DNA of 64,000 nt from a virus. Both the position numbers and the translations under genes were made by a program. The DNA lies in IMG/VR virus record IMGVR_UViG_3300017744_000003, positions 1 through 64,000 of that record; one strand, 5' to 3'. Each line of letters opens with the position of its first letter. The first letter of the stretch is position 1. Shown piece by piece: positions 4,085-61,918 of this stretch. The notes beneath the pieces are model-generated. The model did no database searches. It was not told the DNA's origin and saw nothing but the letters and a program-made list of their open reading frames with translations.

Positions 4085-5048
4085 GAAGAAGTTTAAGCCT
4101 TTAGCGACGACAAGGGGTAGTGGTCTTTTATCGAAGACTCATCGTGTTAAGACTATATCTGGGGGTACCCTTGAGTTAGAAGCGCAACCAGGTAAAGTAC
4201 GTAAGGGCGAACGTAACTACGAGTTAGCAGATGCTAAGAGACGAATATTAAACAGGTTGCCTACCCAAGAGTCTAAGGTAAGGACTCTTATGTTAAAGGG
4301 TATAAGTAGGGCCGAAGCTGCTTATATGCGTTTTGATAAAAGGCGCAACCGTACTACGGGAGAACTTAGAGTTGTTGAAAAGTCTGAGTTAGGTAGGCAA
4401 CTTGAGGGTGTGGTAAGAGATACTATGCGAGATGCCAAAGATCAGATTCTTTCTAACATAGAGGGTTCAGTTAAAACGTATCTTATTGGTCTTCGTAGAT
4501 CTTTAGATGATAAGTCTTTGCTACCTATGTCTACTATAAGAGACATGGCACGTAAGCAGGCTATACAGATCTATAACAAACCTACAGGTAAGGACGGTAT
4601 GAACACTGCTCAAAGACTTGCTACAGCGGGTGGTCGTATGGAGTTAGAACTTCTAAAGCGTATGGACATGGGTATGTTGAAGCGTATAGAAGACCGTAAT
4701 AAGTTAAAGAAGTCTTTAGTAGATCCTAAAGGTTCTAACAAGGCGTGTATATCTAAGACGATTACTCGTATAAATAGAACTGAGCAGAACCGAGCTATGC
4801 ACAAGGCCACCGTAGATACTATGGCATCTATAGGCGTTAATTTATTTTATTGGCGCTTAAGTGCTGCTCATAAAGATTATGGTGGCACAGAAATTTGTGA
4901 AGTTTTGTCTGTTTCTACAGGAGCAGACGTTAATAGTTCATTGCCCTCTGGTTTTAGTAGTTCTACTACAGGTCTATATACTAGTGCTAGTCTACCAGAT
5001 TTGCCACACCCTAACTGCATGTGTAGTATAGAACCTGTATTTGTTTAA
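4077..5048 (+). CDS. head morphogenesis protein (MuF/SPP1 gp7-like)
   Basis: After portal; RINRTE, a Cys-containing segment and C-terminal PHPNCMC. Confidence 0.75.
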   Translation: MARKKFKPLATTRGSGLLSKTHRVKTISGGTLELEAQPGKVRKGERNYELADAKRRILNRLPTQESKVRTLMLKGISRAEAAYMRFDKRRNRTTGELRVVEKSELGRQLEGVVRDTMRDAKDQILSNIEGSVKTYLIGLRRSLDDKSLLPMSTIRDMARKQAIQIYNKPTGKDGMNTAQRLATAGGRMELELLKRMDMGMLKRIEDRNKLKKSLVDPKGSNKACISKTITRINRTEQNRAMHKATVDTMASIGVNLFYWRLSAAHKDYGGTEICEVLSVSTGADVNSSLPSGFSSSTTGLYTSASLPDLPHPNCMCSIEPVFV

Positions 5049-5055
5049 CTTTATT

Positions 5056-5084
5056 TTGACGCATGGGATTTTATATAAGATAAT
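5056..5084 (+). promoter_or_regulatory. sigma70-like promoter upstream of scaffold/capsid genes
   Basis: TTGACG-17 bp-GATAAT in an AT-rich gap. Confidence 0.5.
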
Positions 5085-5133
5085 CCATGTGGAAAACTTT
5101 ATTTTTTCTTTTTACAAAGATTGGAGATACATT

Positions 5134-5337
5134 ATGGCTATGTATTCAACACACAACGCGAAGCCTATGAACAGCCCAGGCCAAGACGCAACCACTAAAG
5201 ATCGTGGAATGTCAGATTACTTTGATATGCGTCAGCAGCCTAACAAGGCTAAAGTTCAAGGCGGTCGTCTTGTTATGATGAGTAATGCTCCTGGGCAACA
5301 TGCCCGCAGAGCGCCGAAGTCTGATATCCTCCGCTAA
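5134..5337 (+). CDS. small hypothetical protein
   Basis: GGAG RBS before ATG 5134 (track start 5041 overlaps the previous gene and the promoter). Confidence 0.6.
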   Translation: MAMYSTHNAKPMNSPGQDATTKDRGMSDYFDMRQQPNKAKVQGGRLVMMSNAPGQHARRAPKSDILR

Positions 5338-5385
5338 TATTATTCCATTCCGCACCTAGTAAAAGTTAAAAGGGCATATAGATAA

Positions 5386-6123: not shown

Positions 6124-6158
6124 ATAAACTTATTTTAATTTTTAGTTAGGAGTCAATT

Positions 6159-7187: not shown

Positions 7188-7210
7188 TATACTATAGAAG
7201 GTAAAAGAAT

Positions 7211-7531: not shown

Positions 7532-7548
7532 GGTATGAGGACACTATT

Positions 7549-8340
7549 ATGGCTGACATTAACTCACTTATTAATCGTATAAGAGCAAGAGTACACGATA
7601 ACGTCAGTCATACTTCGCGAGAAGATGGTCGTCCTTTATATCTTGACGAGTATTATATAGACAGTATTCAAAGCGGTATTGGACGTATAAACCTCGATAT
7701 AGATAGTTCATATACCGTAGCTACGTTACCTGTTAAGTATGAATACTTAGCAGAGTTACGAGCTACCATAAATATGTGTTATGTTCGTGGTGCAGAGGGG
7801 GCTACTTCTGATGTAGAAGACTTCCCCGATGTACCCGACCAAATAGTCACTGTTCCGCAACTGACGGTACAGAGGCAGCAAATGCCACTAGACGGGCCAA
7901 AGTTTTGGTTACGTCTAGCAGAAAAGTTGGAGAATGAATATCTCTCAGCGCTTGCCCGTCTTCAAGATAGGGGTGAAGAGGGAGCAGAAATTCAGCAGTA
8001 TACAATGTCTCGTATGTCTCTAAGGACAGGTAGACGTATGCCTTATGTTTATGACAAGCCAATCACACCTCCGGAGGGTTTTGCTGTAGCTGTCATAGGT
8101 CAGAAGGTCAAGGTGACTTGGGGCGTGGTCTATGATGAATATTTTAACTACTACACATTACAACGTAGTGTAGATCCCGACTTTTCAACAACTCGATCTG
8201 TCTATGCTAGTAGTGATAACCACGACAGTGTGTACTTTGACCAACCGATTGCAGGTCAAGTTTACTACTATCGTTTGGCTATTTATAACTCAAACGACTT
8301 GGTATCTTACACTGAGTCGGCAAGTGTTGAAGTGCAATGA
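7549..8340 (+). CDS. head-tail adaptor-like protein with C-terminal FN3-like domain
   Basis: Synteny; C-terminal VKVTW...YTLQRS...YYYRLAIYN is an FN3 pattern. Confidence 0.6.
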   Translation: MADINSLINRIRARVHDNVSHTSREDGRPLYLDEYYIDSIQSGIGRINLDIDSSYTVATLPVKYEYLAELRATINMCYVRGAEGATSDVEDFPDVPDQIVTVPQLTVQRQQMPLDGPKFWLRLAEKLENEYLSALARLQDRGEEGAEIQQYTMSRMSLRTGRRMPYVYDKPITPPEGFAVAVIGQKVKVTWGVVYDEYFNYYTLQRSVDPDFSTTRSVYASSDNHDSVYFDQPIAGQVYYYRLAIYNSNDLVSYTESASVEVQ

Positions 8341-9345: not shown

Positions 9346-9346
9346 A

Positions 9347-10066: not shown

Positions 10067-10074
10067 GGTGAAGT

Positions 10075-11901: not shown

Positions 11902-11913
11902 GGAGTTTAGACA

Positions 11914-12432: not shown

Positions 12433-12484
12433 GACATACATACTATAAAATAGTTTTCAACAACTTATAAAACAAAGGTTAGTC

Positions 12485-21797: not shown

Positions 21798-21822
21798 TAC
21801 TTTTCAACAACTATGAGGACTT

Positions 21823-27075: not shown

Positions 27076-27642
27076 ATGAAGTTAATCATGGTAGGGAAGT
27101 TTAAGGACACACTGACATGGCAGTCTCACACAGGCTATAAGCGAACAGAAGAGCGGGGGTGGTCTTTTAATCAAATACAAGACTCTGCTCTTCACCAAGT
27201 TACAGGTTCAATCATAGGTGTCGAGGACACTACCTCTGGACTTTTCAACAACTTTGCGCCGATTCGTTACCTAGCTATAGGGTCAGGTGATTCTTCTTGG
27301 GACGCTGATCCTAATAACGTATCAAAACCTGTCACGCAAACTTCCCTTACTACAGAGTTCACTCGTTTTGCAGTTACCGCAGACGAGTTTGAGTTCTTAG
27401 ATAATAGTGGCGTGTTACTATCTCCTCAATCACTGAGCCCAAGATTCAGACTAACAAGGCTACTAGGGGCGAACGATGCTAATGGAGATCTAAGGGAATT
27501 TGGACTCTTTGGCGGTGACGCAAGTGCAGGTTTTGATACCGGAGTTATGTTCAACTGGATCACACACCCACTAATCCAAAAAGACGCTACGCTTGTTATT
27601 GAGCGCGTCATAGATATTCAGTTCTCAATCAACAGGAGTTAA
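27076..27642 (+). CDS. tail collar/fibre attachment protein
   Basis: YLAIGSG, SLTTEFTR, DANGDLREFGLFGG, IQKD. Confidence 0.65.
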   Translation: MKLIMVGKFKDTLTWQSHTGYKRTEERGWSFNQIQDSALHQVTGSIIGVEDTTSGLFNNFAPIRYLAIGSGDSSWDADPNNVSKPVTQTSLTTEFTRFAVTADEFEFLDNSGVLLSPQSLSPRFRLTRLLGANDANGDLREFGLFGGDASAGFDTGVMFNWITHPLIQKDATLVIERVIDIQFSINRS

Positions 27643-32941: not shown

Positions 32942-33156
32942 TTACTTTGTTAGGTTCTCTTTTATCTGCACTTATCCCTATTCTATTGAAGACATTATCT
33001 GATAGAATGGAGACTCCGCAGAATAAGGAGAAGCCTAATGCAATTAAAGAATTACACAGGGCGAAAGACAGCATTGGAGTTGCTGTGGCTTGGAAGCGTC
33101 ATGATAATCGCCTTGAGCGGTTGTTGCTTAAAGCCAAGGCCCGCAACCGACCATGA
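32938..33156 (+). CDS. putative inner-membrane spanin
   Basis: N-terminal TM then a charged helix; after holin and overlapped by a lipoprotein gene. Confidence 0.5.
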   Translation: MITLLGSLLSALIPILLKTLSDRMETPQNKEKPNAIKELHRAKDSIGVAVAWKRHDNRLERLLLKAKARNRP

Positions 33157-33301
33157 TCCTGTCATAGTTGTTGAAAAGTCTGAGATAGTGCAGAACCCTG
33201 ATGGGAGCTACACTGTTTCTGAGGGTTGGATGCTTCAGCGTATGAATATGGAGCAGAACCTTGGCGAGGCTCTAAGTATGTGTGTTGGAGGTGAAGAATG
33301 A
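33038..33301 (+). CDS. putative outer-membrane spanin lipoprotein
   Basis: AAGGAG RBS at 33025; basic N-terminus, hydrophobic stretch and lipobox LSG-C. Confidence 0.6.
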   Translation: MQLKNYTGRKTALELLWLGSVMIIALSGCCLKPRPATDHDPVIVVEKSEIVQNPDGSYTVSEGWMLQRMNMEQNLGEALSMCVGGEE

Positions 33302-33651
33302 TCTCTGGTATATATAATATGACGATAGAGCAGGGCAGTACTTTCAAACTAGCTTTGTATTGGAAGAACAGCGCCAATCAACCTGTACCAATGAGCAACT
33401 ATACTGCTAAGATGCAAATAAGAGCATCTACCGGAGCAAGTGTTGTTCTTTTAGAACTAACAAGCGCTGATTCTGATCAGATTCAAATATACGAGAATCA
33501 AGGCGCTATTAATCTTACAATTGGTTATGAGCAGACACAGAACTTACCGCCCTCAGTTTGTGTTTACGACTTAGAGGTAACTTCTCCAGAGAATGTTAGA
33601 ACTAAACTTATAAAAGGTCGATGCCGTATTGAGGGAGAGGTTACACGATGA
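33298..33651 (+). CDS. small beta-sandwich virion structural protein
   Basis: YNMTIEQGSTF, YTAKMQIR, VYDLEV, KLIKG----EVTR, common before fibre genes. Confidence 0.7.
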   Translation: MISGIYNMTIEQGSTFKLALYWKNSANQPVPMSNYTAKMQIRASTGASVVLLELTSADSDQIQIYENQGAINLTIGYEQTQNLPPSVCVYDLEVTSPENVRTKLIKGRCRIEGEVTR

Positions 33652-36600: not shown

Positions 36601-36719
36601 CATCTGGTTACGTTCAAGGCCCAACTACAGTTGCTTTAGAAAAATATAAAATTTATACTTTTGCGGCTTATAGTAATCGTGGCTGGTATTTAGTCAATGA
36701 AAAGGCTTACTTACCCTAA
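33648..36719 (+). CDS. collagen-like fibre protein
   Basis: Two Gly-X-Y blocks (GPQGPQG) flanked by globular domains. Confidence 0.88.
34473..35619 (+). repeat. collagen Gly-X-Y coding repeats (9-bp unit, e.g. GGACCACAA), two blocks split by a globular insert
   Basis: Directly visible tandem repeats; end coordinate approximate. Confidence 0.9.
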
Positions 36720-39379: not shown

Positions 39380-39691
39380 ATGAAAGCAATAAAAGCAAAA
39401 TCTAGTAAAAAAGACCCTTTTGACAGCCATAAACGAACAAAAGAGTCTAACTTGCCTTTTGTTAAAGCAAGTAGGACTCTTTACATGAACAAAAGTGCTT
39501 ATGCGGTATTAGGTACCGAGGGGTTCAAATATAATGGTGAAAACCAGTTAGACCGTGAATCTGAAGTTAAAGAGGGTGAAGGTTACTTAGATGTAGAAAC
39601 CGTAATTAATGTTCTAATACATGAACTTATGGTAACTAAGTCGGATCTACTTAAACTCAAAAAAGTTGTTGAAAAGTCTGAGGTAGTGTAG
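39380..39691 (+). CDS. hypothetical protein, possible stand-alone fibre chaperone
   Basis: C-terminal YLDVETVINVLIHEL...LKK coiled coil. Confidence 0.55.
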   Translation: MKAIKAKSSKKDPFDSHKRTKESNLPFVKASRTLYMNKSAYAVLGTEGFKYNGENQLDRESEVKEGEGYLDVETVINVLIHELMVTKSDLLKLKKVVEKSEVV

Positions 39692-40053: not shown

Positions 40054-40065
40054 GTTCTTAAACAA

Positions 40066-40116
40066 GTCGCTCTTATATATAGTATATAATATAAGATACA
40101 GTATATATATAAGAGC
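40066..40116. promoter_or_regulatory. AT-rich inverted-repeat element, copy 2
   Basis: 13-bp arms GCTCTTATATATA (40069-40081) and TATATATAAGAGC (40104-40116), then AGGAG RBS. Confidence 0.65.
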
Positions 40117-40127
40117 AGGAGCTTACG

Positions 40128-44958: not shown

Positions 44959-44975
44959 ATAGTTGTTGAAAACTA

Positions 44976-45004: not shown

Positions 45005-45039
45005 TATATCACCCAACATAGTTGATGAAAGGATCACAG

Positions 45040-47735: not shown

Positions 47736-49000
47736 ATGGCTGGTCGTTAAAAAAAGACGGATTTCTTCTTGATAAAGAAGCTCTTACTTTTGGTGAGGGA
47801 GACTTTAGGTGTGAAGTATACAAAGAATGTGAAGAAGGTCTACTTGTCCCTAGAGGTTACCAAGATTTTTCCCATGCTGATGATAGTGTTTCTCTAGGTG
47901 AACCTCTCTCCGAAATGACCCCTATCTCTCTTAGAGAAGAACAAGTACCCGCTGTCCAAGCCATCATGGACTTTTTGGACCGCCCAGGTAAGGGTGCTAT
48001 CTTGTTTGCCCCCTGTGGTAAAGGTAAGACAGTCATGGGACTTGAGATGATTAGGAGACTTGAGCGAAAGGCTCTCGTACTCGTTCATAAGTCTTTCTTA
48101 GTTGATCAGTGGATTGAACGTATATGCATGTTCCTACCTGATGCTAAAGTAGGTTTATGGCAAAGAGACAAGGTTCCTGTTGGTGATGAAGATATAGTAG
48201 TGGGCATGGTACAATCTATTATTAACACTAAAAGAGAATACCCCTCTCATTTCTATGAATCGTTTGGGACTATTGTGGCTGACGAGACTCATCGTTATGC
48301 AGCACCCCTTTGGCAAGAGGCTATTAGTCGGTTCACTGCTTCTTATCGTATAGGTCTTACTGCAACGCCAGAGCGTAAAGATGGCTTACACCATGTCTTC
48401 TATGCACACATAGGGCCTATCGTGTATTGGATGGAAGGTCATAAACGTCAACCATTGATATGGAGGATAGATACAGATACGACTTTTAATCTGCGTTCGT
48501 ATCTTCTTTATAATGGTGAAGTAAACACTTCTAAACTAGTTACTATGATCTCTAAAGATGAAAGTAGAACTGACCGCATAGTTGACTTTGCTTTTAGAGC
48601 TTTAAAGAAGGGTAGAAAGGTTCTTATACTATCTGAGCGCGTGGCGCATACTAAAGAGATGGTGGACTTGTTGAAAACAAAAGTAAGTGATGACTTTCAA
48701 TGTGCTCTTTATATCGGCGGTATGAAACAATCTCAGAGAGAAAGCGCTTCTCATGCTGATGTGATATGTGGGACTTACGCAATGGCACAAGAAGGTTTAG
48801 ATATCCCTACTTTGGATACCTTAATATTAGCCACACCTAAGACTAGTATCACTCAGAGTGTTGGGCGTATTCTAAGAGATTCTCCCGATAAAAAAGATCC
48901 GGTTGTGGTCGATTTTGTCGATCCTTTAATACCTATAATGAACGGTTATTGGGGAGCACGTAAGAGAACCTATACACAACTTGGTTATCTTTTCGTTTGA
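47732..49000 (+). CDS. superfamily 2 DExH helicase
   Basis: LREEQ, APCGKGKT, ADETH, LTATP, EGLDIP, QSVGRILR; GTGA overlap start. Confidence 0.92.
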   Translation: MNGWSLKKDGFLLDKEALTFGEGDFRCEVYKECEEGLLVPRGYQDFSHADDSVSLGEPLSEMTPISLREEQVPAVQAIMDFLDRPGKGAILFAPCGKGKTVMGLEMIRRLERKALVLVHKSFLVDQWIERICMFLPDAKVGLWQRDKVPVGDEDIVVGMVQSIINTKREYPSHFYESFGTIVADETHRYAAPLWQEAISRFTASYRIGLTATPERKDGLHHVFYAHIGPIVYWMEGHKRQPLIWRIDTDTTFNLRSYLLYNGEVNTSKLVTMISKDESRTDRIVDFAFRALKKGRKVLILSERVAHTKEMVDLLKTKVSDDFQCALYIGGMKQSQRESASHADVICGTYAMAQEGLDIPTLDTLILATPKTSITQSVGRILRDSPDKKDPVVVDFVDPLIPIMNGYWGARKRTYTQLGYLFV

Positions 49001-49044: not shown

Positions 49045-49407
49045 ATGACTCTAAGAGAACTAGTGATTGAATATCACAAAACATTGCAAGATATTAAAAG
49101 TCTTGAAACAAGGAAAAAAGACCTAAAGTCTCGTATTGACTTGTCTTTATCTACACAAGATACTAACAAGTACCAAGACAGCCAGTATTCAGCAATCTTG
49201 TCTGAACATCAAAGAGTAAAGTATGACCTAGAAGGTATTGAGCACCTTCTTCTACATAAGGGTATACCTACTGCTAGGTTTTTAGAAAGCAAGGTTGACT
49301 TGAAGCGTGTAGAAGAACTTATTGCCGAAGGTTCTGTGGATGCTCAAGAAATTGCGGAGTATGCAGAGGTCAAGACCATAAAAACACTTACCGTGAAGGG
49401 ATCATAA
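49045..49407 (+). CDS. hypothetical coiled-coil protein
   Basis: AAGGAGGT RBS before ATG 49045. Confidence 0.65.
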   Translation: MTLRELVIEYHKTLQDIKSLETRKKDLKSRIDLSLSTQDTNKYQDSQYSAILSEHQRVKYDLEGIEHLLLHKGIPTARFLESKVDLKRVEELIAEGSVDAQEIAEYAEVKTIKTLTVKGS

Positions 49408-49979
49408 TGTCTGAGGACACAAAAAAAGTAAAGAGCCGTTCCAGTTATCAGCGTGAGTATTACTTAAAGAACAAAGAACGTATAAAGAACGCTCGTAGTA
49501 AGCGTTATGAAAACGATCACGAGTTTAGAGATCGTATCAACTTACAACGCAGAAAATCTCGCAACTTAAAAAGTATGGATAGCTATCAGTCGATAGGAAC
49601 TGTCAAGGAAGAAGAGGTAGATGTTTTGGAAGATTGCATGATGAAGGTTATGTCTGCGGATCGGAGTAAGAGTCACATATGCAAAATGTATTCAATCACC
49701 GGAGTGGCAATGCGTGTACGTGTTGATAAGAAGCGTTTAGAACATCTAATATACCAAGGTAAAGTACCTAGAGCCCGATACCGAAATATTAAAGGTTGGC
49801 GAGTGTACACTGAGTACGAACTTAAGGTTTTAATGAAGGCGTTTGCCCGATTTAGGAAGAAAGCAACTTTGAACAACTACAAGTTTAGATTCACTAAAGA
49901 AATGGCAGACTACATAAACCTTAAGTTCTCTAAACTTGTAGGTGGTATTCCAACCGATATGTACACAGACGAAGGATAA
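49407..49979 (+). CDS. basic DNA-binding protein with MerR-like HTH
   Basis: YSITGVAMRVRV...QGKVP...RNIKGWRVYTEYEL. Confidence 0.6.
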   Translation: MSEDTKKVKSRSSYQREYYLKNKERIKNARSKRYENDHEFRDRINLQRRKSRNLKSMDSYQSIGTVKEEEVDVLEDCMMKVMSADRSKSHICKMYSITGVAMRVRVDKKRLEHLIYQGKVPRARYRNIKGWRVYTEYELKVLMKAFARFRKKATLNNYKFRFTKEMADYINLKFSKLVGGIPTDMYTDEG

Positions 49980-51708: not shown

Positions 51709-51739
51709 CTTTACTTTTCAACAACTTAAGGAAAAAGAC

Positions 51740-52645
51740 ATGGAAATCAAAAACATAAATATTGAAGACATTGACTATAGTTACATTGAAAACTGCCGTA
51801 CCTCTATAGAGGTTGAAGACCTTCGTGAGTCTATTGAAGCCACCGGTCTACAGACACCTATTGGTGTTGTTTTACAGGGTGAAGGTAAGTTTGGTTTGGT
51901 TTATGGTTTTCGTAGACTAAACGCTTGTTCTAGTTTGGGTTGGATTACTATACCTGCAAGTATTGTTTCAGCAGACAACCAAGCAGACTTGTTGGTCATG
52001 AACTTACAAGAGAACGTCAGTAGGCAGAGTTTAACTCCAATGGAAGAGGCTTATGCGATCAAACGGATTATGGACGCAGGTAAAGACGTTGATGAGTTTA
52101 GGGCAGCACTGGGTTGGTCTAAAACACTAATCACACAAAGACTTGGGCTTTTAGACTTAAGTCTTGAGATTCAAGAAGCACTTGAAGAGGATAAGATCTC
52201 CGTCAACCAGGCAAGAGCTATCGACGAAGCAGAGCATGAGCACCACGGGTCTTTGATTGTATTAGCGGAAGAAGGGACTACTGTTAAGGCTCTAAAAGAA
52301 GAGATTGAACAACTCAACCGAGTTGTTGGTCCCGACGATGAAGTGACTCTAGTCCTCGATGAGGATAATGATTTATTGCTAGATGAAGAAGAGGATTATG
52401 ATTCTTCCAAAGAAGACGCTAAGGCTTTAGCGGAGGCTAACTCCAACTTGGTAAAAGCTACTTTGTTGGACTGTGGTGCAAAGGTGCTTACAGGAGATTC
52501 TTCTTGGTGGGCTTACCAAGTTGCTATTTCAAGTATCGACTTTAGTCGATTACCCTCCGGAGAGTTAGCTGCTCTTGTAAATGCCATACAAAACCTTGCG
52601 GGGGATCATGGTCTTGACGCTTGGGGCGAAGGTTCTAAGAGATGA
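51740..52645 (+). CDS. parB: ParB/Spo0J-family protein
   Basis: NCR, GLQTPIGV, YGFRRL (GxRR), ENVSRQSLTPMEEA, HTH; acidic C-terminal region. Confidence 0.88.
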   Translation: MEIKNINIEDIDYSYIENCRTSIEVEDLRESIEATGLQTPIGVVLQGEGKFGLVYGFRRLNACSSLGWITIPASIVSADNQADLLVMNLQENVSRQSLTPMEEAYAIKRIMDAGKDVDEFRAALGWSKTLITQRLGLLDLSLEIQEALEEDKISVNQARAIDEAEHEHHGSLIVLAEEGTTVKALKEEIEQLNRVVGPDDEVTLVLDEDNDLLLDEEEDYDSSKEDAKALAEANSNLVKATLLDCGAKVLTGDSSWWAYQVAISSIDFSRLPSGELAALVNAIQNLAGDHGLDAWGEGSKR

Positions 52646-53473: not shown

Positions 53474-53941
53474 ATGATGGTTGATCAAAAAGTAGTAGAC
53501 TTTGGACTTCACACTAGAAAACTGATCATGGCGCTTGGACTTACTGCTCCTGCTTCCCCTACGGTAGAACTAGTATTCCCAAATGACCTAAGTAAACTAG
53601 CAGACCAGGAACTTGCCCAACACTTGAGTTATTGGGCTTCGATGACCGCCTACGCTCATCAGAAGGTAGCGGTTCTTGAAGGAGCCCTGGTTCATTCTAA
53701 GAATGAATACGAGCAAGAATATGACTTAAGATTGTATAACAAGTCGGGAAATAGTATATCAGAACGTAAGATAGCACTTGGTGCTTCAAAGGTGTTGAGG
53801 GATATGAAAGTTCGGCTAACTACCATTGAAGCGGATCTTAAAGTGTTAAAATCTATCCTCATAGGTTATGATCTCAAGAACTCTGCGGTTAGTAGAGAAA
53901 TAACAAGAAGACATAATGAGAGGAATCTTAGAGATGGATAA
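53474..53941 (+). CDS. helical hypothetical protein, possibly UvsY-like
   Basis: Coiled coil in the recombination cluster; function from context only. Confidence 0.55.
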   Translation: MMVDQKVVDFGLHTRKLIMALGLTAPASPTVELVFPNDLSKLADQELAQHLSYWASMTAYAHQKVAVLEGALVHSKNEYEQEYDLRLYNKSGNSISERKIALGASKVLRDMKVRLTTIEADLKVLKSILIGYDLKNSAVSREITRRHNERNLRDG

Positions 53942-54209
53942 TGACAAGTTAATCAATTTGAAAGTAGCAGGACGCTCTGACCCTTCATCTGTAGCAGGTA
54001 GCGTAGTAAAGAATATTAATGAAGATAGAACCGTGACACTTACCGCCATTGGCGCGGGAGCGGTTAACCAAATGCTTAAAGCCGTAACAATTGCTAGATC
54101 TATGTCGGCAAGTAGTGGACTTGACTTATTTTTTACTAGCGGGTTTTCTACAGAGATCATCAATGGAGAAGAGAAGACAGCTATGCGGATATTTGTAAAG
54201 CAAAGATAA
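53934..54209 (+). CDS. spoVS: SpoVS-family (Alba-like) nucleic-acid-binding protein
   Basis: LKVAGRSDPSSVAGSV, AIGAGAVNQMLKAVTIAR, GF----INGEEKTAM. Confidence 0.9.
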   Translation: MDNDKLINLKVAGRSDPSSVAGSVVKNINEDRTVTLTAIGAGAVNQMLKAVTIARSMSASSGLDLFFTSGFSTEIINGEEKTAMRIFVKQR

Positions 54210-54532
54210 TGTTTACGATCACCTATAATATGCAAATGCCTTCGGGTATTTTAATGTTTGAAATTGAGTTGATGGTTTCTGATCTTAACGAAGGTGAGGC
54301 ATGTAGCGCACCTAAGTTGAAAGAAGCACTGATCAGTTGGTGGGAAGACCCTGAAGCACCAAGAAGAACACCGGAAGAGGCTTGCCTTGGTGCTTGGGCG
54401 TGTTTAACTGATTACCTAGTCGCTCAAAGAGAGCACAACCGAGTTCAATGTTCCAAAGTAAGCCTAGAAACTTCTGGGCATAAAGTAAGATTCATACCAA
54501 CAGAAGATACATGGAGTAAAGTTTATGTCTGA
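54209..54532 (+). CDS. hypothetical protein
   Basis: TAATG-coupled ORF. Confidence 0.6.
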   Translation: MFTITYNMQMPSGILMFEIELMVSDLNEGEACSAPKLKEALISWWEDPEAPRRTPEEACLGAWACLTDYLVAQREHNRVQCSKVSLETSGHKVRFIPTEDTWSKVYV

Positions 54533-54950
54533 GTATAGAGAAAACCAAGACAACTTCGTAGAAGATACAGTAAAAGAAGAGCAGCCCTCTGTTGAGGAAG
54601 CATCTACCAAGGTAGATCCTGAAACAGAGTTCAACCCATCTAATCCAGATCTAAAAGACAATCAGATTGATGAGGATATCGTCACCGCAGTTTTGTTGAT
54701 CAAGAACAGACAAGGAGCGGTATTACCCGTGACGAATCTTGACTCTTTGAAGATGGATAGACAGGCAAATGCACATGAGGTTCTACGTATGTGTGCAGAT
54801 GTTCAAGACCAAATTGGTGCGATTCGTATCGTTGGTGAACTCGCGCAAATCTTCCAACACCTAAATCAGTCTTCTTTAAAGAGTATTGCAGACTTGATGA
54901 ACGTGAAGATGAATCAGAATGTGACAGGAACTACCGACTCTGATAGTTGA
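54525..54950 (+). CDS. hypothetical acidic protein
   Basis: GGAG RBS, overlapping start. Confidence 0.6.
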   Translation: MSEYRENQDNFVEDTVKEEQPSVEEASTKVDPETEFNPSNPDLKDNQIDEDIVTAVLLIKNRQGAVLPVTNLDSLKMDRQANAHEVLRMCADVQDQIGAIRIVGELAQIFQHLNQSSLKSIADLMNVKMNQNVTGTTDSDS

Positions 54951-54994
54951 ATGTGTTATGTCATAATGTAATACTTTAAACAGGAGGTTACATT

Positions 54995-55375
54995 ATGGCT
55001 AAGAAATACAATGATCAATGGTTCGTTCCGCCAAAAGGTGTCCAAAAGGCAGCAGAGCGGGGTCTAAAAGATCGTAAGAAGTACGGTCGCGGTGGCTTAA
55101 CAAACAAGCAAGCCTCAGAACAAGGTATTGGTTCTGGGGTGCAACGTGCGGTTAATCTGAAGAATGGTAACAAGGTATCGCCTCAAACCATTAAGCGTAT
55201 GAAGAGCTTCTTTGCTAGGCATGAGAAGAACAAAAACTCTCGCAAACCTAATGGAGAACCTGGTGCCGGTAAAATCGCTTGGGACTTGTGGGGGGGTGAC
55301 GCAGGTAAAAGGTGGGCTGAGTCTACTGCTAAAAAAATGGAACGCGCAGACGAGTTGGATAAAAAAAGACGTTAA
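54995..55375 (+). CDS. basic conserved phage protein (AWDLWGGDAG motif)
   Basis: AGGAGG RBS; TIKRMKSFFARHE and IAWDLWGGDAGKRWA. Confidence 0.75.
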   Translation: MAKKYNDQWFVPPKGVQKAAERGLKDRKKYGRGGLTNKQASEQGIGSGVQRAVNLKNGNKVSPQTIKRMKSFFARHEKNKNSRKPNGEPGAGKIAWDLWGGDAGKRWAESTAKKMERADELDKKRR

Positions 55376-55491: not shown

Positions 55492-55538
55492 TCGCTCTTA
55501 TATATATATATATAACTAAGAGATACTATATAAGTGAG
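55492..55538. promoter_or_regulatory. AT-rich element, copy 3 (degenerate)
   Basis: TCGCTCTTA(TA)n...TATATAAGTGAG directly before ATG 55544. Confidence 0.55.
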
Positions 55539-55543
55539 ATGAG

Positions 55544-56926
55544 ATGAGAGTCTGTTTAAGTGGAGTTGTTAGAGAAGAGCGCCTAGATAAAATATTGGAA
55601 GCTAAGGTTAGGAGTGTTGTTTTAGATTACTCGGTTGTTAAAGATCTCAGCCTAGATTGGTTTGAAGATAACCGTGACCAGTTTGATTGTATTATGTTGG
55701 AGTACGATCTAACTGGTGCGTGGTCTAGGATGAAGTACCTTTGGGGAGGCGAAACAGATCGTGTTCTCAGAGCTATAGAAAAGCATGGTAGTTTGTCAAA
55801 TGCGAAAGAACACCTTCTTTCTAAGCTAGATCAACGAGTGACTAGTTATCTAAGTTTCTGTAATAATATTGAAGGCTTGATTGATGTTATTTGGCTTCCT
55901 TTCCTACCTAATATGGGTTGTTCTAGGTGGGAAAAGTTGTTGAAAAGTACCAAGATAGGTTACACCTTATGGTCTTTCAACGAGATCGATACTATTATTC
56001 ATAACTATTCTTACGTAGGTATACCGAGTTCGTTTGATACCGAAGTCGTGAAGGTTGAAATGAAGCCTTATATTGCCTCTCTAAAGTCGTTTGGTATTAA
56101 AACGCATAGGTGGGGTAGGGTAGACAAGGAAACGCTCCTTACGGGCTTATTCTGGAGTGCTTCAAGTTCTAACTGGTTAAGTGGTTCTAAATACGGAGTC
56201 ACTTTTGAATACGTAGGAAACCTAAAACTTGTTACACATCATGGGTCTAAAGGCTCAGGTAAGTCAGTAAGAAACAAGCTCAAGTCTAAATGTGAAACTT
56301 TATCCCTTGACCATTGTCTATTGATGAGCGATGACCGTAGGACTGTTGACCTGTGGAATCTCTCTCAGTGGGAAGCCTACTCAACAGAAGCAAACCGAGT
56401 AGGTGGTTACTGGACAAAGAGGGAGGCAGCAGTGAGTAAAGATCAGTTACCTGTAGTTAACAATCAGACAGAATCAAGCCTTGCAACTTCTAGTCAGTTT
56501 GGTTCATACTTACGGACTTGTAATTCATGTTACCTCAGTGCAAATTGCCCTGCATTTGAGCCCGACAATAACTGTAGAATATCGACAACCCCCAAGGTGG
56601 ACACGCCCGAAGACGTTCAGCAACTTATCAACAAAGTTATTCAGATACAGGGTGAGAGAGTCTTGTTCGCTTCTATGTCCGAAAGGATTCAGAACGCAGG
56701 ACTCAACCCCGAGGTATCTTCTGAGATGGAGACTTTGACGAAGTTAATGAAGGACGCCAGGGAAATTGCTTCGCCTATAGGTGAGGACGAGGTTTTAATA
56801 AAAGCTAAGGGATCTGGAGTGATCTCGCGTTTATTCGGCGGTTATGGAAGATCGGGTGGAGGTTCTAAACCATCTACGTCAGAGAGAATCATAGATATCT
56901 CTCCTATGGAGTCAGAAGATGACTAA
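55544..56926 (+). CDS. hypothetical protein; possible degenerate TGT/DpdA-like barrel plus Cys4 domain
   Basis: THRWG...SASSSNWLSG-KYG; CNSCYLSANCPAFEPDNNC. Confidence 0.6.
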   Translation: MRVCLSGVVREERLDKILEAKVRSVVLDYSVVKDLSLDWFEDNRDQFDCIMLEYDLTGAWSRMKYLWGGETDRVLRAIEKHGSLSNAKEHLLSKLDQRVTSYLSFCNNIEGLIDVIWLPFLPNMGCSRWEKLLKSTKIGYTLWSFNEIDTIIHNYSYVGIPSSFDTEVVKVEMKPYIASLKSFGIKTHRWGRVDKETLLTGLFWSASSSNWLSGSKYGVTFEYVGNLKLVTHHGSKGSGKSVRNKLKSKCETLSLDHCLLMSDDRRTVDLWNLSQWEAYSTEANRVGGYWTKREAAVSKDQLPVVNNQTESSLATSSQFGSYLRTCNSCYLSANCPAFEPDNNCRISTTPKVDTPEDVQQLINKVIQIQGERVLFASMSERIQNAGLNPEVSSEMETLTKLMKDAREIASPIGEDEVLIKAKGSGVISRLFGGYGRSGGGSKPSTSERIIDISPMESEDD

Positions 56927-58844
56927 ATACTTTAATAATGAACTCGGTGAACTTGTGTACCTACGGTCTTACGCTAGGTGGTTAGAGGAAGAAAACCGAA
57001 GAGAAACCTGGGACGAAACCGTTGATCGGGTCATGGGTTTTCTCTTTGAAGACTCACCTATTGATGAGCATAAGAAAGATCTTATTTCTCAGATGATGTT
57101 AGACCAAAAGGTCATGCCTTCTATGCGTTCACTTTGGGCGAGTGGGGGGTTTGCTAAAACAGATAATACAGCTATCTATAACTGTTCTTTCCTACCCATT
57201 GATAACCTTAAAGCGTTCTCAGAACTAATATATATCCTCATGCAAGGAACAGGGGTAGGTTTCTCCGTAGAGAGTAAGTTTGTTAGTAAGTTACCTACTG
57301 TCGCTAAGTTGACCGACGCTATTGCGGAGTACCAGGTCGAAGATAGCGCAGTTGGTTGGGCTGACGCTGTTTTCTTTGCTGTTACTAACGCATGGAAAGG
57401 GTATGGGAACCTTAATTTTGATTATTCGTTAGTACGACCTAGAGGATCTCGGTTGAAAACAAAAGGGGGCCGAGCAAGTGGACCGGAGCCTCTACAAAAG
57501 GCTCTATCTTTTATTACTGAAACAATTTTCAAAGCGGAAGGTAGACAACTAACCACCTTAGAGGTCTATGATATCTGCTGCGCTTTGGCAGAAGTAGTAG
57601 TTGTCGGTGGTGTGCGTAGGTCTGCGATGATCTCTTTTAGTGACCCTAACGATGATTCTATGCGACACGCTAAGGATTGGAAGCGTGGCAACTTCCCTAT
57701 TAAGCGTTATATGAGTAATAACAGTGCTTACTTTGAGGGAAGACCTAGTAAAGAGGTATTTGATAGAGAGTGGAAGCAACTAGCAGAGTCGGGTAGCGGT
57801 GAGCGTGGATTGTCTATAGATAACTGGCATAAGTACGCTCCTAGACCTCAAGGTGAAACACGCTCAAATCCATGTCATGAGATAGGACTAAGATTCAAAG
57901 AATCGAATGATCCTTGGACAGGTGAAGGGGGTGGCGGTCAGTTCTGTAATCTTAGTGCGGTTGTTGTTAGACCTGAAGACACATTAGAAACTTTAAAAGT
58001 TAAAGTTGAACTCGCTACTATCATTGGTTGTACACAAGCTCAGTTTACACATTTCCCATACTTAAGACCTGCTTGGAAAGAACTTTGCCAAGAGGATCGA
58101 CTCATAGGTGTAGACCTTACGGGCCAGTGTGATAATCCTAAGTTATTAGATGACCTAGAAAACCTATCTATATTAAACCAGGTTGCAGTAACCACTGCTA
58201 AGAAGATGAGTGACCTTTTAGGAATCAATATGCCCGCTGCTATTACTTGCGGTAAGCCGAGTGGGAACACTTCTCAAATGGTTGACTGCGCCAGTGGGTT
58301 TCACCCTAGATATAGTGATTATTACTTCCGACATGTGCGCGTCAGTGCCGACGACCCTTTGTCAGAGTTGTTGAAAAGTCAAGGGGTCCCTATGTTTCCG
58401 GAAGTAGGTCAAGAAGATTTTGAAGAACAAGACGTAAAGACTTGGGTTGCTCGTTTCCCTATCAAGTCACCTGAAGGTTCGATGACAAGAGACGATGAGG
58501 ATTCTTTCCAACAGATGGAGCGCTACTTAACCATTATGAAGGGTTGGTGTAAGGAGCGCGGTCATAACCAGAGTGCTACCATCTACGTCAAAGAAGGCGA
58601 TTGGGATAAAGTAGGGCAGTGGGTTTGGGACAACTTTGACGACATTGTAGGTCTAAGTTTCTTACCTTATGATGGAGGAAACTATAAGTTAGCGCCTTAC
58701 GAAGAGATCAGCCAAGAAGAATATGAAGACTCTATCCAAGACTTCCCACAAATTGACTACACAATGTTGTCTGATTTTGAAAAGTTTGATCAAGGACAGG
58801 GCTCAAGCGAGATCGCTTGTACAGGTGGCGCTTGTGAAATCTAG
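56919..58844 (+). CDS. nrdJ: class II (B12-dependent) ribonucleotide reductase
   Basis: RRETW-ETV-R, MPSMR, YNCSF, GTGVGFS, VGGVRRSA, NPCHEI, FCNLS, KPSGN, C-terminal CTGGACEI; no beta subunit adjacent. Confidence 0.92.
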   Translation: MTKYFNNELGELVYLRSYARWLEEENRRETWDETVDRVMGFLFEDSPIDEHKKDLISQMMLDQKVMPSMRSLWASGGFAKTDNTAIYNCSFLPIDNLKAFSELIYILMQGTGVGFSVESKFVSKLPTVAKLTDAIAEYQVEDSAVGWADAVFFAVTNAWKGYGNLNFDYSLVRPRGSRLKTKGGRASGPEPLQKALSFITETIFKAEGRQLTTLEVYDICCALAEVVVVGGVRRSAMISFSDPNDDSMRHAKDWKRGNFPIKRYMSNNSAYFEGRPSKEVFDREWKQLAESGSGERGLSIDNWHKYAPRPQGETRSNPCHEIGLRFKESNDPWTGEGGGGQFCNLSAVVVRPEDTLETLKVKVELATIIGCTQAQFTHFPYLRPAWKELCQEDRLIGVDLTGQCDNPKLLDDLENLSILNQVAVTTAKKMSDLLGINMPAAITCGKPSGNTSQMVDCASGFHPRYSDYYFRHVRVSADDPLSELLKSQGVPMFPEVGQEDFEEQDVKTWVARFPIKSPEGSMTRDDEDSFQQMERYLTIMKGWCKERGHNQSATIYVKEGDWDKVGQWVWDNFDDIVGLSFLPYDGGNYKLAPYEEISQEEYEDSIQDFPQIDYTMLSDFEKFDQGQGSSEIACTGGACEI

Positions 58845-58902
58845 CATAGCCAAGTGATCTCAGTTATTATGCACACATTATATTATATAAGAGGTGCATA
58901 TA

Positions 58903-60330
58903 ATGAGATGGTTAAGAAGAAGTGAAGCAGCCGAAGCTCTAGGTATCAAAAGACGCGCAGTACGAACTCTAGCAGACAAGGGCGAAATACCCACTAGGTA
59001 TGAAGGCAGGATAAAACTGTACTGCATATCAGACGATATGCTGAATAAGCCTGTTAAAGAAGTAGATGAGTTTTTTGAACAAAGTTCGGATAAGTATATC
59101 TTTGATCCTGTTAAAGACACTTACTTATTTTTTGGTCTACCTAATCAACCTCCCATAGTAAAAGTACCCAGAACTAGAATAGACTCTTTGATCAGTGATT
59201 ATTCAAACGAAGCGGGCGGCGCAACTGTCAATCAGTTATCTGTTCGTTATGAGCTTTCAAGAGCTACGATAAAAGCCATACTTAATTGGTTAGGTAAAAC
59301 CCATGACTCAGCGCCTTTCTCTGATGAAACACTAGAGCATAGTAATGAAGAAGACTTAGCCTCATCTGTGTTAAGAGCTAAAGAGCAGCGAGTCTTAGTT
59401 AAAGCTCAGAAAAAAAGACTTAATCGCCATGAAAACTATCTTAATCAAGTAGACCTTGTTAAACACTATATTAATGAAGTGTATTCTATCGTTGGGGATA
59501 TAGACTTAAAGGGTTCTAAGCCTAAGAAGCGCAAACTTGCTAAAGAAGCCAAGGAATATGTAGCCGTGTTAGGTTTGACGGACTTGCACATAGGTAAACG
59601 AGGAGTAGACGGTTACAACTCAGAAGTAGCTTCTAAAAGAGCGATAAACACCGTCACCAAAGCAACTGCTTTAGCCCAAGGTTCATGGGGTATACCTGAT
59701 TATTGGGTCATCACTTGTGGTTCCGATATGCTTCATGTGGATAACTACCAGGGTACTACTCAAAAGGGTACGCCGATGGACACTGACGTAGACCCTGTAG
59801 AAATGATGGCGATCGCTTATAGAACTATGGAGACTATCGTCTTACTACTTCAAGAGACTGCTCCTGTGAAAGTGGTGGCAATGACGGGTAACCATGACCG
59901 TATGCTGAGTGCTCTACTAGGTATGATGATAGACGCAAGATTCAACGACGACCCAAGAATAGAAGTTGTTGATGGTAGCCGAGGTAGCGCTTACATTAGG
60001 TATGGCGCTAGTTTGTTAGGCTTTAATCATGGTGACTCTATAAAGCCAGATAAGTTACCTAGTATAATGTCTGCGGAAAGACCGGAAGATTGGGGTGCTT
60101 GTAAAGGTAACTGGGATTGGTTTTGTGGTCATCTTCACTCTTTGATCTTAAAAGTGAGTGAACATAACGGTTGTAGAGTATGGACTATGCCTGCGCTCAG
60201 TGGTACGGATAGATGGCACAAGTTAAACGGCTATGCTTTTAATAGGAAACAACTAGCAATGTTTAGGGTAGAGCCTAACAATGGTGTAGTAGCAGTAGAA
60301 CTAATCGAGGGTAAAGATAAAGATGGATAA
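58903..60330 (+). CDS. calcineurin-like metallophosphoesterase with N-terminal HTH
   Basis: TDLHIG, GSDMLHVD, GNHD, HGD, GHLH; N-terminal EAAEALGIKRRAVRTL. Confidence 0.85.
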   Translation: MRWLRRSEAAEALGIKRRAVRTLADKGEIPTRYEGRIKLYCISDDMLNKPVKEVDEFFEQSSDKYIFDPVKDTYLFFGLPNQPPIVKVPRTRIDSLISDYSNEAGGATVNQLSVRYELSRATIKAILNWLGKTHDSAPFSDETLEHSNEEDLASSVLRAKEQRVLVKAQKKRLNRHENYLNQVDLVKHYINEVYSIVGDIDLKGSKPKKRKLAKEAKEYVAVLGLTDLHIGKRGVDGYNSEVASKRAINTVTKATALAQGSWGIPDYWVITCGSDMLHVDNYQGTTQKGTPMDTDVDPVEMMAIAYRTMETIVLLLQETAPVKVVAMTGNHDRMLSALLGMMIDARFNDDPRIEVVDGSRGSAYIRYGASLLGFNHGDSIKPDKLPSIMSAERPEDWGACKGNWDWFCGHLHSLILKVSEHNGCRVWTMPALSGTDRWHKLNGYAFNRKQLAMFRVEPNNGVVAVELIEGKDKDG

Positions 60331-60970
60331 AACAGTTTTAGACAAAGGCTTTGTACGCTTAGTAGACGTTATGGGTTCTGATATGAGTGTTGTTAACTCT
60401 GCTCGTATTAGCTTCGCCAAAGAAGTGACGGATATAGGTGATCGAGATGAGAAGCTAATAAAGTACTTATGGGAACATCGTCATACGAGCCCCTTTAGGC
60501 ATGCTACCTTGCAGTTCCATGTTAAAGCGCCTCTATTTGTTCTTAGACAGTGGATGAAGCACCAAATAGGTTGTTCTTGGAACGAAGTGTCCGGCAGGTA
60601 TGTAAAGTTTGATAATGCTGACTTTTATATGCCTAGCGTATGGCGAGAACAGCATGAATCAAATAAACAAGGTTCAAAGGGTTCTATTGAGAGTCAAGAG
60701 AGTGCAAATCTTTTTTACCAGGACTCTATGCGGCTAGCTGTTACTCGTTATAAAAACTTACTTGACCTTGGGGTGTGTAAAGAGCAAGCGCGTATGGTTT
60801 TGCCTCTTTCCATGTATACTGAGTGTTATTGGACAGCTAGTCTTCAAGCGATCATGCACTTCTTAGAATTAAGAGAAGACTCCCATTCACAATGGGAAAT
60901 CCAACAATACGCAGTAGCAATAAGAGAACTTGCTTTAGAACATTTCCCTATTAGTTTAAGTCTACACTAG
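60323..60970 (+). CDS. thyX: flavin-dependent thymidylate synthase
   Basis: VVNSARISF, HTSPF, RQWMKH---SWNEVSGRY, EQARMVLP, FLELR---HSQWEI. Confidence 0.96.
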   Translation: MDKTVLDKGFVRLVDVMGSDMSVVNSARISFAKEVTDIGDRDEKLIKYLWEHRHTSPFRHATLQFHVKAPLFVLRQWMKHQIGCSWNEVSGRYVKFDNADFYMPSVWREQHESNKQGSKGSIESQESANLFYQDSMRLAVTRYKNLLDLGVCKEQARMVLPLSMYTECYWTASLQAIMHFLELREDSHSQWEIQQYAVAIRELALEHFPISLSLH

Positions 60971-61018
60971 TCTTATTTCTGCTAAAATCTCTCGTACCAA
61001 ATAACGAGAGGGGATTAT

Positions 61019-61882
61019 ATGTTTGATCTAGCAAAACTGACAGTTGAGCCTAGAGATATTGACCTATTTTATAAGCAAGGATTCTTAGAAAATGAGGAGG
61101 CGCAGAAGTTATCAAACTACTTCTTTTGCCTTAAGACAGAGAGTGGACAGCAAAGCGCATTAGGTTATTACAATGATGAGAAAGATTGCTTAGAGTTGTT
61201 GAAAACAAAGGACTTAGTGTATCAAGGATTCAAGCCAAAAGATGGTGCTCAAGCGTGTATGTTTTGGGCATTAAAGCACTTAGATCTTGTGGTTGCTCTT
61301 GGTGCTGCGGGTACCGGCAAAACGACCGTTGCTTTAGCTTATGCCCTTAACGAAGTCTTCCGTAATGGGAAGGATCTTGTTTTGTGTAAACCTACTACTT
61401 TTGTTGGACAAAAGAGTAATGCGATAGCAGCTATACCTGGGGACCACAGAGAAAAGTTAGAAGGCTACATGGATTCTTACTTTACTGCGATGAAGAAGAT
61501 CATCGGTGAGACGTTTGAACACCACCTCTTTCAGCTAGAAGAAGAGGGGCGTATCCAGTTTAAGCCCTTTGAGTTACTAAGAGGTCAACACTTTGAGAAT
61601 GCTATTGTTATTATTGACGAAGCGCAAAATACAACGCCTCATGAGTTGTTAACCGCTATTAGTCGTGTAGGCAATCACTGTACTCTTATCATTATGGGAG
61701 ATCCCGACCAAGTAGACTCAGGGCTTGCCCATGATGAGACCGGTCTTTGGGAACTGATAAACAGTCATGCTTTCTTAGATTGTCCTTTTGCAGTAGGTGT
61801 TAAGTTAACCGCTCAGTATCGAGGCCCAATGGCGCAACTAGCTCAAGAGGTTATCGAGGAACTTAGAGACCGAGAAAAATAA
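61019..61882 (+). CDS. phoH: PhoH-family ATPase
   Basis: GAAGTGKT, IPGD--EK, LRGQHF, IIDEAQN, SRVG, GDPDQVD. Confidence 0.92.
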   Translation: MFDLAKLTVEPRDIDLFYKQGFLENEEAQKLSNYFFCLKTESGQQSALGYYNDEKDCLELLKTKDLVYQGFKPKDGAQACMFWALKHLDLVVALGAAGTGKTTVALAYALNEVFRNGKDLVLCKPTTFVGQKSNAIAAIPGDHREKLEGYMDSYFTAMKKIIGETFEHHLFQLEEEGRIQFKPFELLRGQHFENAIVIIDEAQNTTPHELLTAISRVGNHCTLIIMGDPDQVDSGLAHDETGLWELINSHAFLDCPFAVGVKLTAQYRGPMAQLAQEVIEELRDREK

Positions 61883-61918
61883 TTAAAATAGTTGTTGAAA
61901 ACTTGTTTAAGGTAGGTT

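Follow-up and report, generated by a model that had tools for sequence, protein, structure and literature searches.

Dispersed DNA words that serve phages as regulatory or binding sites are already known as a kind. Among bacterial counterparts, RacA of Bacillus subtilis anchors the chromosome through about 25 dispersed sites, the ram sites being GC-rich inverted repeats clustered near the origin, and BldC of Streptomyces binds asymmetric direct repeats head to tail. KorB of plasmid RK2, ParB with its parS sites and Noc with its Noc-binding sites (NBS) are ParB-family systems with many dispersed sites per replicon and action at a distance; known ParB sites are palindromic. The DNA uptake sequences (DUS) of Neisseriaceae and the uptake signal sequences (USS) of Pasteurellaceae belong to the host chromosome, where they occur about once per kb, on both strands, in and between genes, with exact copies far above near copies and with lineage dialects. 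Here we describe the 12-mer AGTTGTTGAAAA, dispersed over IMG/VR virus record IMGVR_UViG_3300017744_000003 (hereafter G000), a single-contig record of 72,999 bp whose first 64 kb form the window. In phages, the comparable stoperators of Cluster A mycobacteriophages are up to about 30 asymmetric 13-bp sites that differ from one relative to another along with the repressor and mostly follow the direction of transcription; some Cluster A phages have par loci in place of an integrase (PMC6550527). The nick motifs of T5, phiKMV-like phages and tf are conserved 9–19-bp words, some of them bipartite, with 4–14 copies per genome at similar positions in relatives, and their function is given as unknown (PMC3517423).

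The G000 word resembles the stoperators, which are bound by a repressor of the L5 gp71 type, in several respects: dozens of asymmetric copies on the 13-bp scale spread genome-wide and mainly at junctions, one copy upstream of the (here putative) regulator's own gene, and a spelling that drifts between relatives (stoperator features as described in PMC6550527). In the stoperators this drift accompanies that of the binding protein; here the helix of the candidate reader follows the spelling in the close clade and less cleanly in remote genomes. It differs in that its orientation ignores transcription (eight copies run with the local genes, seven against them and one is ambiguous), in its second box and its statistically even spacing, and in a candidate reader of MerR-like type that comes from another protein family. 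The host is a marine bacterium, and the lifestyle need not be temperate. What sets the word apart is its bipartite 27-bp form, its even spacing, a density that stays constant while sites turn over, and dialects by which close relatives differ in single letters. From the element, with its conservation, spacing, dialects and site turnover, we infer an array of candidate binding sites for a co-evolving phage protein that would act genome-wide on transcription, a tentative reading to which we assign a probability of roughly 0.4.

An earlier note, made from the window alone, had listed 13 exact copies of AGTTGTTGAAAA in both orientations and held that far fewer than one would arise by chance. All 13 were recovered where it had placed them, eight on the + and five on the − strand, and 100 dinucleotide-preserving shuffles of the window gave a mean of 0.04 copies and a maximum of 1. 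Its division of the window copies into five in short gaps and eight inside open reading frames (ORFs) stands as well. The whole of G000 contains 16 exact copies (11 on the + and five on the − strand), about one per 4.6 kb, and two near copies with one mismatch and ten with two; the sole one-mismatch copy in the window lies at 48666. Within two mismatches, the window contains 23 matches compared to 11.2 in shuffles. The word is the most frequent 12-mer of G000. The runner-up, AGGACCACAAGG with 11 copies, was discarded, being merely the collagen-like Gly-Pro-Gln repeat of the tail-fibre gene (window 33648–36719), which, like that of its relative G001, carries long collagen-like Gly-X-Y repeats.

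The earlier note had also proposed comparison with a codon-aware null model. Synonymous-codon shuffling (300 shuffles, crude ORF calls) left a mean of 7.2 copies, of which seven were the untouched non-coding ones, so that nine coding copies are observed where about 0.2 are expected. The two shuffle nulls rule out chance, composition and codon usage as the origin of the copies. Because of this excess in coding DNA, and because the 12-mer is 100% identical at paired sites of G000 and G001, selection must act at the DNA level; chance and protein coding are excluded as explanations of the word. Annotators should accordingly take conserved in-gene stretches of this kind for DNA signals and not for protein constraints. 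The word is not identical to GTTTAAAC, and a full-text literature search with the 12-mer, its complement and two 13-mers, supplementary files lying outside its scope, found it in no phage context; among the matches listed, it appeared only in primers and oligonucleotides from unrelated fields.

G001 is an 81-kb contig found by a pattern scan of viral contigs, while further relatives came from PolA-based searches of viral and metagenome collections. It contains 20 exact copies and is colinear with G000 at 66–83% nucleotide identity in aligned blocks, mostly about 72%. Ten G000 copies are matched in G001, in the same orientation, by ungapped flank identity and five more by position and gapped alignment, two of these weakly; only the copy at 61890 has no counterpart. 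When the 15 site pairs are compared position by position, the 12-mer is 100% identical, positions +12 to +14 are 82% identical and positions +18 to +26 are 73–78% identical, with flanks at 50–60%. Since identity is raised up to +26 and then drops to flank level, the selected unit is about 27 bp long: a rigid 12–14-bp box is followed by a spacer that varies freely and by a second, softer box.

The full element reads A-N-AGTTGTTGAAAA-[G/C]T, followed by 5–7 variable, often AT-rich bases and then TAG[T/G][G/A]T. It is asymmetric and non-palindromic. Position −2 is A in 13 of the 16 copies, position +13 is G in 11 and C in five, and position +14 is T in 15. The TAG box is found 7–9 nt past the 12-mer in ten copies and 5–13 nt past it in 13, and its commonest readings are TAGTGT, TAGGTA, TAGGTT and TAGTAT. 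Both longer matches pointed out earlier are real: GTC follows the 12-mer in six window copies, and a 19-mer ending in GTCTGAG is present at 4370, 33166 and 39664. The window contains no Rfam families and no tRNAs.

The element reaches far beyond this pair. Its core, TTGTTGAAAAGTC, persists in lineages with PolA only 54–58% identical, and this holds across a wide range of base composition: L406 (34% G+C) has three core copies in 11 kb and L349 (56% G+C) keeps the AT-rich word in three copies over 18.8 kb. L347 has nine core copies in 21.8 kb. In G009 (PolA 56%; 60 kb examined of a contig of 60.9 kb), five of the 12 copies occupy G000 sites in the same orientation (8182, 12454, 33166, 51715 and 58366) and seven are elsewhere. 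Sites turn over while their density stays at about one per 4–5 kb. Conservation in relatives across synonymous divergence, which the earlier note had suggested as a second check, is therefore borne out by the kept sites. A bipartite-pattern scan of viral contigs returned G001 only, a scan with the 15-mer of the G007 dialect returned G007 and one more contig with two hits, and the unrelated viral contigs G003–G005 have 1–2 copies each, which is chance level. No other non-coding signal in these genomes is as strong as the element, which is selected over deep divergence; it can be used as a marker of this family of uncultured marine myoviruses and gives an entry to the control or organisation of their chromosome.

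Between close relatives the spelling changes in concert. G007 spells its eight copies AGTTGTTGACAA and lacks the G000 spelling altogether. G008, a complete genome of 84,945 bp with a 77-bp end overlap and a PolA 70% identical, uses AGTT[T/A]TTGAAAACT[A/T]TT..TAGG[T/G]; most of its 14 relaxed matches coincide with intergenic positions of G000, and the majority of in-gene copies are missing. L395 spells the word AGTTTTTGGAAA and L396 AG[T/A]T[T/A]TTGAAAA, and the one-letter variants …GACAA, AGTTTTTGAAAA and …TTGGAAA occur among the lineages. At three junctions (those preceding the protease-like gene and parB, and the one that follows the primase gene), four close relatives each have their own spelling at the same place. 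That close relatives differ, junction by junction, through such concerted changes of one letter indicates a spelling determined by the phage lineage and not by the host.

Copies prefer the gaps between genes. Seven of the 16 lie wholly in non-coding DNA, which makes up 3.9% of G000, and among the 30 gaps of at least 20 nt (3,104 nt in total) seven have a copy compared to 0.7 copies expected. The gap copies at 12454, 21801, 51715, 69158 and 71268 face away from a start codon 10–20 nt further on, and the copies at 39664, 44961 and 61890 face the following start codon. A copy or dialect form is found just upstream of parB in eight of 12 genomes. In the main gap ahead of the replication genes, G007, L406 and G006 have tandem pairs, and in L246, L427, L406 and L347 a copy directly follows a T run. 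The positions of all copies in G000 are listed in Table 1.

Table 1. The 12-mer in G000 and the genes of its candidate readers (coordinates of the window, continued to the end of the record).
Feature	Position	Strand	Context, counterparts and evidence
12-mer copy	4370..4381	+	inside head-morphogenesis gene 4077..5048; TAGGTA box 8 nt downstream; G001 counterpart exact, flanks conserved
12-mer copy	8182..8193	−	in gene 7549..8340, opposite to gene; same place and orientation in G001 and remote G009
12-mer copy	12454..12465	−	52-nt gap between tail-tube gene and gene 12485; faces away from next start codon, 19 nt off; matching copies in G001, G008 (dialect form) and G009
12-mer copy	21801..21812	−	25-nt gap before gene 21823; matching copies in G001, G008 and G006 (spelled TTTTGTTGAAAA)
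12-mer copy	27242..27253	−	in gene 27076..27642, opposite to gene; TAGTGT box 9 nt downstream
12-mer copy	33166..33177	+	read as Val-Val-Glu-Lys in ORF 33038..33301; most widely kept copy (G001, G006, G007, G008, G009)
12-mer copy	39664..39675	+	end of gene 39380..39691, 15 nt before protease-like gene 39691; TAG box overlaps the latter's Shine-Dalgarno sequence; dialect spelling at matching site in L346, L395, L396
12-mer copy	44961..44972	+	2 nt past primase stop codon, in gap before gene starting at 45040; dialect spellings at same place in L346, L395, L396
Decayed copy ACTTGTTGAAAA, one mismatch	48666..48677	+	inside helicase gene; exact counterpart in G001 at 24256
12-mer copy	51715..51726	−	13 nt upstream of parB start codon, faces away from it
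12-mer copy	55935..55946	+	inside gene 55544..56926
12-mer copy	58366..58377	+	inside ribonucleotide reductase gene, in 34-base run identical in G001; G009 copy at same place
12-mer copy	61194..61205	+	inside PhoH-like gene 61019..61882
12-mer copy	61890..61901	+	36-nt gap before gene 61919; TAG box overlaps its Shine-Dalgarno sequence; G008 copy near matching place
12-mer copies beyond the window	67641, 69158, 71268	+	from the whole-genome count
Candidate reader 1: MerR-type winged helix-turn-helix protein, 190 aa	49407..49979	+	sequence signature, fold matches
Candidate reader 2: ParB	51740..52645	+	Pfam ParB_N and HTH_ParB
Candidate reader 3 (weak): SbcD/Mre11-like exonuclease with N-terminal HTH_17	58894..60330	+	phrog_704, E=1e-48

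Two neighbouring sequences resemble the word. In the gap ahead of the replication genes of G000, an AT-rich palindromic element that starts with TCGCTCTTATATA (window 40054–40127) has GTTCTTAAACAAGTCGC in front of it, seemingly a decayed form of the family word; the same gap holds the intact tandem copies of G006, G007 and L406. The two-mismatch copy AGTTGATGAAAG at window 45020–45031 shares bases with the ribosome-binding site that serves the gene at 45040 and is conserved in G001 and L346, a conservation that probably reflects the constraint on the ribosome-binding site and not a site of the array.

In the array that we favour, the 12-mer would be the high-affinity half of the ~27-bp element, the docking site of one phage-encoded sequence-specific DNA-binding protein. 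The phage keeps 16–20 copies of the element, about one per 4–5 kb, wherever the DNA tolerates them, in short intergenic gaps first and otherwise written into genes. The bound protein would be a global regulator or silencer over the whole chromosome, with copies at gene junctions or in regulatory regions serving as operators and the remaining ones as roadblocks or nucleation points, and reader and site would change together, giving rise to lineage-specific spellings. Besides the operators and stoperators of Cluster A mycobacteriophages, such a system would resemble the KorB sites of plasmid RK2. We favour this reading because the word is exact and asymmetric, prefers junctions, occurs in tandem in three relatives within their main regulatory gap, has a copy ahead of parB and varies in dialects. 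If such a global silencer exists, the stoperator principle extends beyond actinobacteriophages.

The most likely reader is the predicted MerR-like protein encoded at 49407..49979, with ParB second. In a comparison of 29 proteins across 11 related loci, it is present in all loci and is the most divergent and fastest-evolving shared protein; its identity to the G000 sequence is 62% in G001, 50–51% in L346, L395 and L396, and 25–34% elsewhere. Its middle part has a MerR-type winged helix-turn-helix signature. The presumed recognition helix, DKKRLEHLIY, is common to G000 and G001, which share a spelling, and reads [N/D]K[D/E/V]KLVHW[V/I]Y in three dialect genomes. This co-variation with the word is no more than suggestive, being seen in the close clade and not clean in the remote genomes. 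The AlphaFold model of the protein, built with 12 sequences, has a predicted local distance difference test score (pLDDT) of 84 and a predicted template modelling score (pTM) of 0.63, and its best Foldseek matches (E 0.016–0.05) are the RacA–DNA complex, CueR, MtaN, HiNmlR and BldC, all of them MerR-family DNA binders. Pfam and NCBIfam do not name the protein, PHROG gives one weak match and tblastn gives none in cultured phages. The one-letter dialects of near relatives amount to a natural specificity-swap experiment through which the reader could be found.

The other candidates follow the word less well. The helix-turn-helix (HTH) of ParB (SKTLITQRL…ISVNQARAI) is nearly invariant across the family, including L350, which is without the word. 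A parS-like palindrome, TGTTCCACGTGAAACA, lies apart from the word at G000 72549–72564, and it has no match within two mismatches in G001 or ten related loci. The exonuclease at 58894..60330 is a fusion of HTH_17 with an SbcD/Mre11-like enzyme, an arrangement that could direct a nuclease to specific sites; as a reader it has no support from co-variation, since its HTH differs strongly in G009 while the core word is the same there. Nothing ties the DnaD-like Rep protein to the word.

Several observations weigh against an array of regulatory sites. Its main weaknesses are the mixed orientation, with eight copies along the local genes, seven opposite to them and one between convergent genes, and the even spacing, both of which fit an architectural grid better. 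Spacing in G000 is more even than random (coefficient of variation (CV) of the gaps 0.48 versus 0.92, P=0.002), as is that in G009 (CV 0.41 versus 0.89, P=0.0024), and even spacing, taken with in-gene copies conserved over deep divergence, would follow from a coverage or architectural function more readily than from gene regulation. The match between candidate reader and word is loose outside the close clade: L347, L427 and G006 keep the core TTGTTGAAAA yet have helices unlike that of G000. The fold matches of the MerR-like protein are weak (best Foldseek E 0.016). The heart of the word that is invariant across dialects, TTGA[A/C]A, looks like a −35 hexamer and so sustains a reading connected with RNA polymerase. 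As to lifestyle, no integrase-sized unassigned ORF was seen in the ORF lists, which were read by eye only, and no repressor-type lifestyle is shown.

The first alternative is a grid whose sites load or anchor a protein covering the whole chromosome, for compaction, segregation, anchoring or shielding, and which has no primary role in transcription. We consider it unlikely. Either ParB might fill this role, as a sliding clamp that needs no ParA, or the MerR-like protein, in the manner of RacA of B. subtilis. Such a grid would account for the spacing, which is more even than random in G001 (P=0.0001) as well as in G000 and G009, for a density that stays constant while positions turn over (with five of 12 G009 sites at G000 sites), for an orientation independent of gene strand and for in-gene copies that last over deep divergence. 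G000 encodes a ParB, no ParA was noticed alongside it and a site lies 13 nt upstream of parB, in which respects it recalls the KorB, ParB–parS and Noc systems, and the RacA–DNA complex is the best match of the predicted MerR-like fold, with BldC–DNA also among the best. The likeness to RacA is by fold only, with weak E-values, and the element is asymmetric and genome-wide, unlike the ram sites. A ParB grid is harder to reconcile with an element that, unlike known ParB sites, is non-palindromic, with the separate parS-like TGTTCCACGTGAAACA and with a ParB HTH that hardly varies across dialects while the word changes. Moreover, most in-gene copies are lost from G008, where the evenness of spacing does not reach significance (P=0.07), and the tandem copies in regulatory gaps suggest operators.

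A variant of this idea, which we also regard as improbable to a similar degree, is a private, evenly spaced address code. A RacA-like (MerR-fold) or ParB-type protein would then load or anchor at the sites and coat, compact, position or shield the genome, and through its dialect each phage would recognise no DNA but its own. We know of no description, in a tailed phage, of a genome-wide self-marking system of this sort. If true, a grid for architecture or self-recognition would be a new function for phage DNA.

Less likely again is a phage-specific class of promoters, in which the 12-mer would be an activator box replacing the −35 element and the TAG box would be −10-like, with the copies opposite to genes giving rise to antisense RNAs. 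Boxes of this kind are known, since the MotA box of T4 and the PhoB box stand in place of the −35 element. At ~27 bp the bipartite element is promoter-sized, its downstream box fits TAnnnT in many copies, its invariant core is the −35-like TTGA[A/C]A, and in relatives it follows a T run ahead of the replication genes. Orientation in G000 is coherent by module (four of four tail-module copies are antisense, and six of seven in the replication and metabolism module at 39–65 kb are sense). No DxDGD-type motif of a phage RNA polymerase was found outside the fibre gene, and transcription would therefore depend on the host polymerase and phage factors. The geometry, however, is wrong: TTGAAA and TAG are 9–10 nt apart and not 16–18, and none of the 16 copies has TAnnnT at 17 nt. 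Few −10 elements have a G at the position that is third in the TAG box. At 39664 and 61890, as at the matching sites in L346, L395 and L396, the TAG box doubles as the Shine-Dalgarno sequence for the gene that follows, which a start some 7 nt further along would leave out; transcription from 39664 or 61890 would start at or past the start codon. The copy at 67641 has a stop codon on one side and on the other a terminator hairpin, which it faces, and its G001 counterpart is placed likewise. With eight copies along the genes and seven antisense, and with no module pattern in L347, orientation does not help, and sigma-70-like matches in 38–56 kb are not above shuffles (28 versus 35.8). An ordinary sigma-70-type promoter does not fit the element.

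The relative without the word presents a separate case. L350 (a contig of 45,517 bp, PolA 42%) repeats [C/T]TTGACAAACACAG on the + strand, in some copies with a plausible −10 box, and two of the copies continue identically into a TG-extended −10-like box and look like real sigma-70 promoters. These repeats may be the homologous element in promoter form.

Lower still we place a strand-specific processing signal, that is, sites of nicking, priming or initiation of recombination, with the 12-mer as the recognition part, the TAG box as the place of action and the HTH-fused SbcD-like nuclease as a possible enzyme. The layout of a recognition part plus second box and the even spacing would suit such a signal, and the phage encodes a RecA-like protein and a RecB-family exonuclease besides the HTH_17–SbcD-like exonuclease. 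GTC, which would suit a T7-type primase site, follows the word in only six of 16 copies. The HTH of the nuclease does not track the word. Mapped nick motifs of tf and phiKMV are likewise conserved 9–19-bp words at similar positions in relatives, but all the motifs described in PMC3517423 are on one strand only, as opposed to the 11/5 split of the G000 word. Its orientations along G000 run +----+++-+++++++, and their clustering is not significant (P=0.06–0.08). With this result, and with a pattern that is not kept in L347 or G009, genome-scale polarity of the kind expected of Chi, KOPS, Ter or priming direction was rejected.

A word determined by the marine host (an uptake sequence, a Chi-like site or a DnaA-box decoy) is very unlikely on the present comparisons, although exact copies outnumber near ones much as in uptake sequences and the density of one per 4.6 kb is similar to that of Chi in E. 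coli: phages with 70–78% identical DNA polymerase spell it differently, the selected bipartite element of 27 bp is far longer than Chi or a DnaA box, and a 14-mer scan of 185,579 prokaryote genomes, one per species, gave at least 120 stretches, with single hits in unrelated taxa and no clustering in any genome among the stretches listed. In contrast to DUS and USS, the word belongs to the phage lineage and changes between close phages. The earlier note had correctly observed that TTTTCAACA is one mismatch from the DnaA box TTWTNCACA, a mismatch that falls at the consensus C. Its suggestion of decoy or recruitment sites for host DnaA is not supported, as selection spans 12–14 bases plus a second box and not a 9-mer, and the dialects TTTTCAAAA and TTGTCAACA add mismatches to the consensus. 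The other part of its proposal, a genome-wide grid at the DNA level read by a phage protein, agrees with the exact copies, their conservation across synonymous divergence, the even spacing and the concerted changes of spelling.

G000 is a myovirus with genes for terminase, portal, major head, sheath, tube and baseplate proteins. Its block for replication and nucleotide metabolism comprises a DnaD-like initiator, a DnaB-like helicase, primase, PolA, a RecA-like protein, ParB, ribonucleotide reductase, ThyX and PhoH, names that were partly derived from reading translations. Genes are on the + strand up to about 65 kb and on both strands in the last 8 kb. A megablast search with 40 kb of the window found no match in the phage collection, and the best protein relatives in cultured phages are at most 39% (terminase) and 36% (PolA) identical; none is thus related closely enough for knowledge to be transferred from cultured phages.

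Some genes near copies of the word have features of their own. The protease-like gene 39691, next to the copy at 39664, matches a PHROG annotated as protease and no Pfam family; a link of the word to a SprT-like protease was discarded. The 460-aa protein encoded at 55544..56926 matches phrog_887 'queuine tRNA-ribosyltransferase' over its C-terminal 115 residues (E=1e-22), with no Pfam, NCBIfam or PDB sequence match, and may be a divergent DpdA-like DNA-modification enzyme. It was dismissed as a DNA transglycosylase tied to the word because only its C-terminal part matches phrog_887 and nothing connects the protein to the word. Window 53916–54209 encodes a SpoVS-domain protein (Pfam PF04232, E=3e-22) that is 67–89% identical across the family.

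The phage family occurs in seawater metagenomes: runs of 14 studies contain part of a 10-kb stretch, and in two DNA runs from two studies contigs are 90–96% identical across that 10 kb. The contigs of four runs that were aligned revealed no molecule ends; around 58366 the differences listed leave the element intact, which carries no evidential weight because the listing omits 631 others. In two seawater runs recorded as RNA libraries (one of them RNA by guess only), contigs are 100% identical to short pieces, 54336–55188 and within 56739–63328. The phage may be transcribed in the sea, although DNA carry-over is conceivable and such contigs are uninformative on starts and strand. At the record's right-hand end (G000 about 72850–72999) there are three tandem GC-rich hairpins with CCCC..GGGG stems, each followed by GAGCCATAAAAAATACCA.

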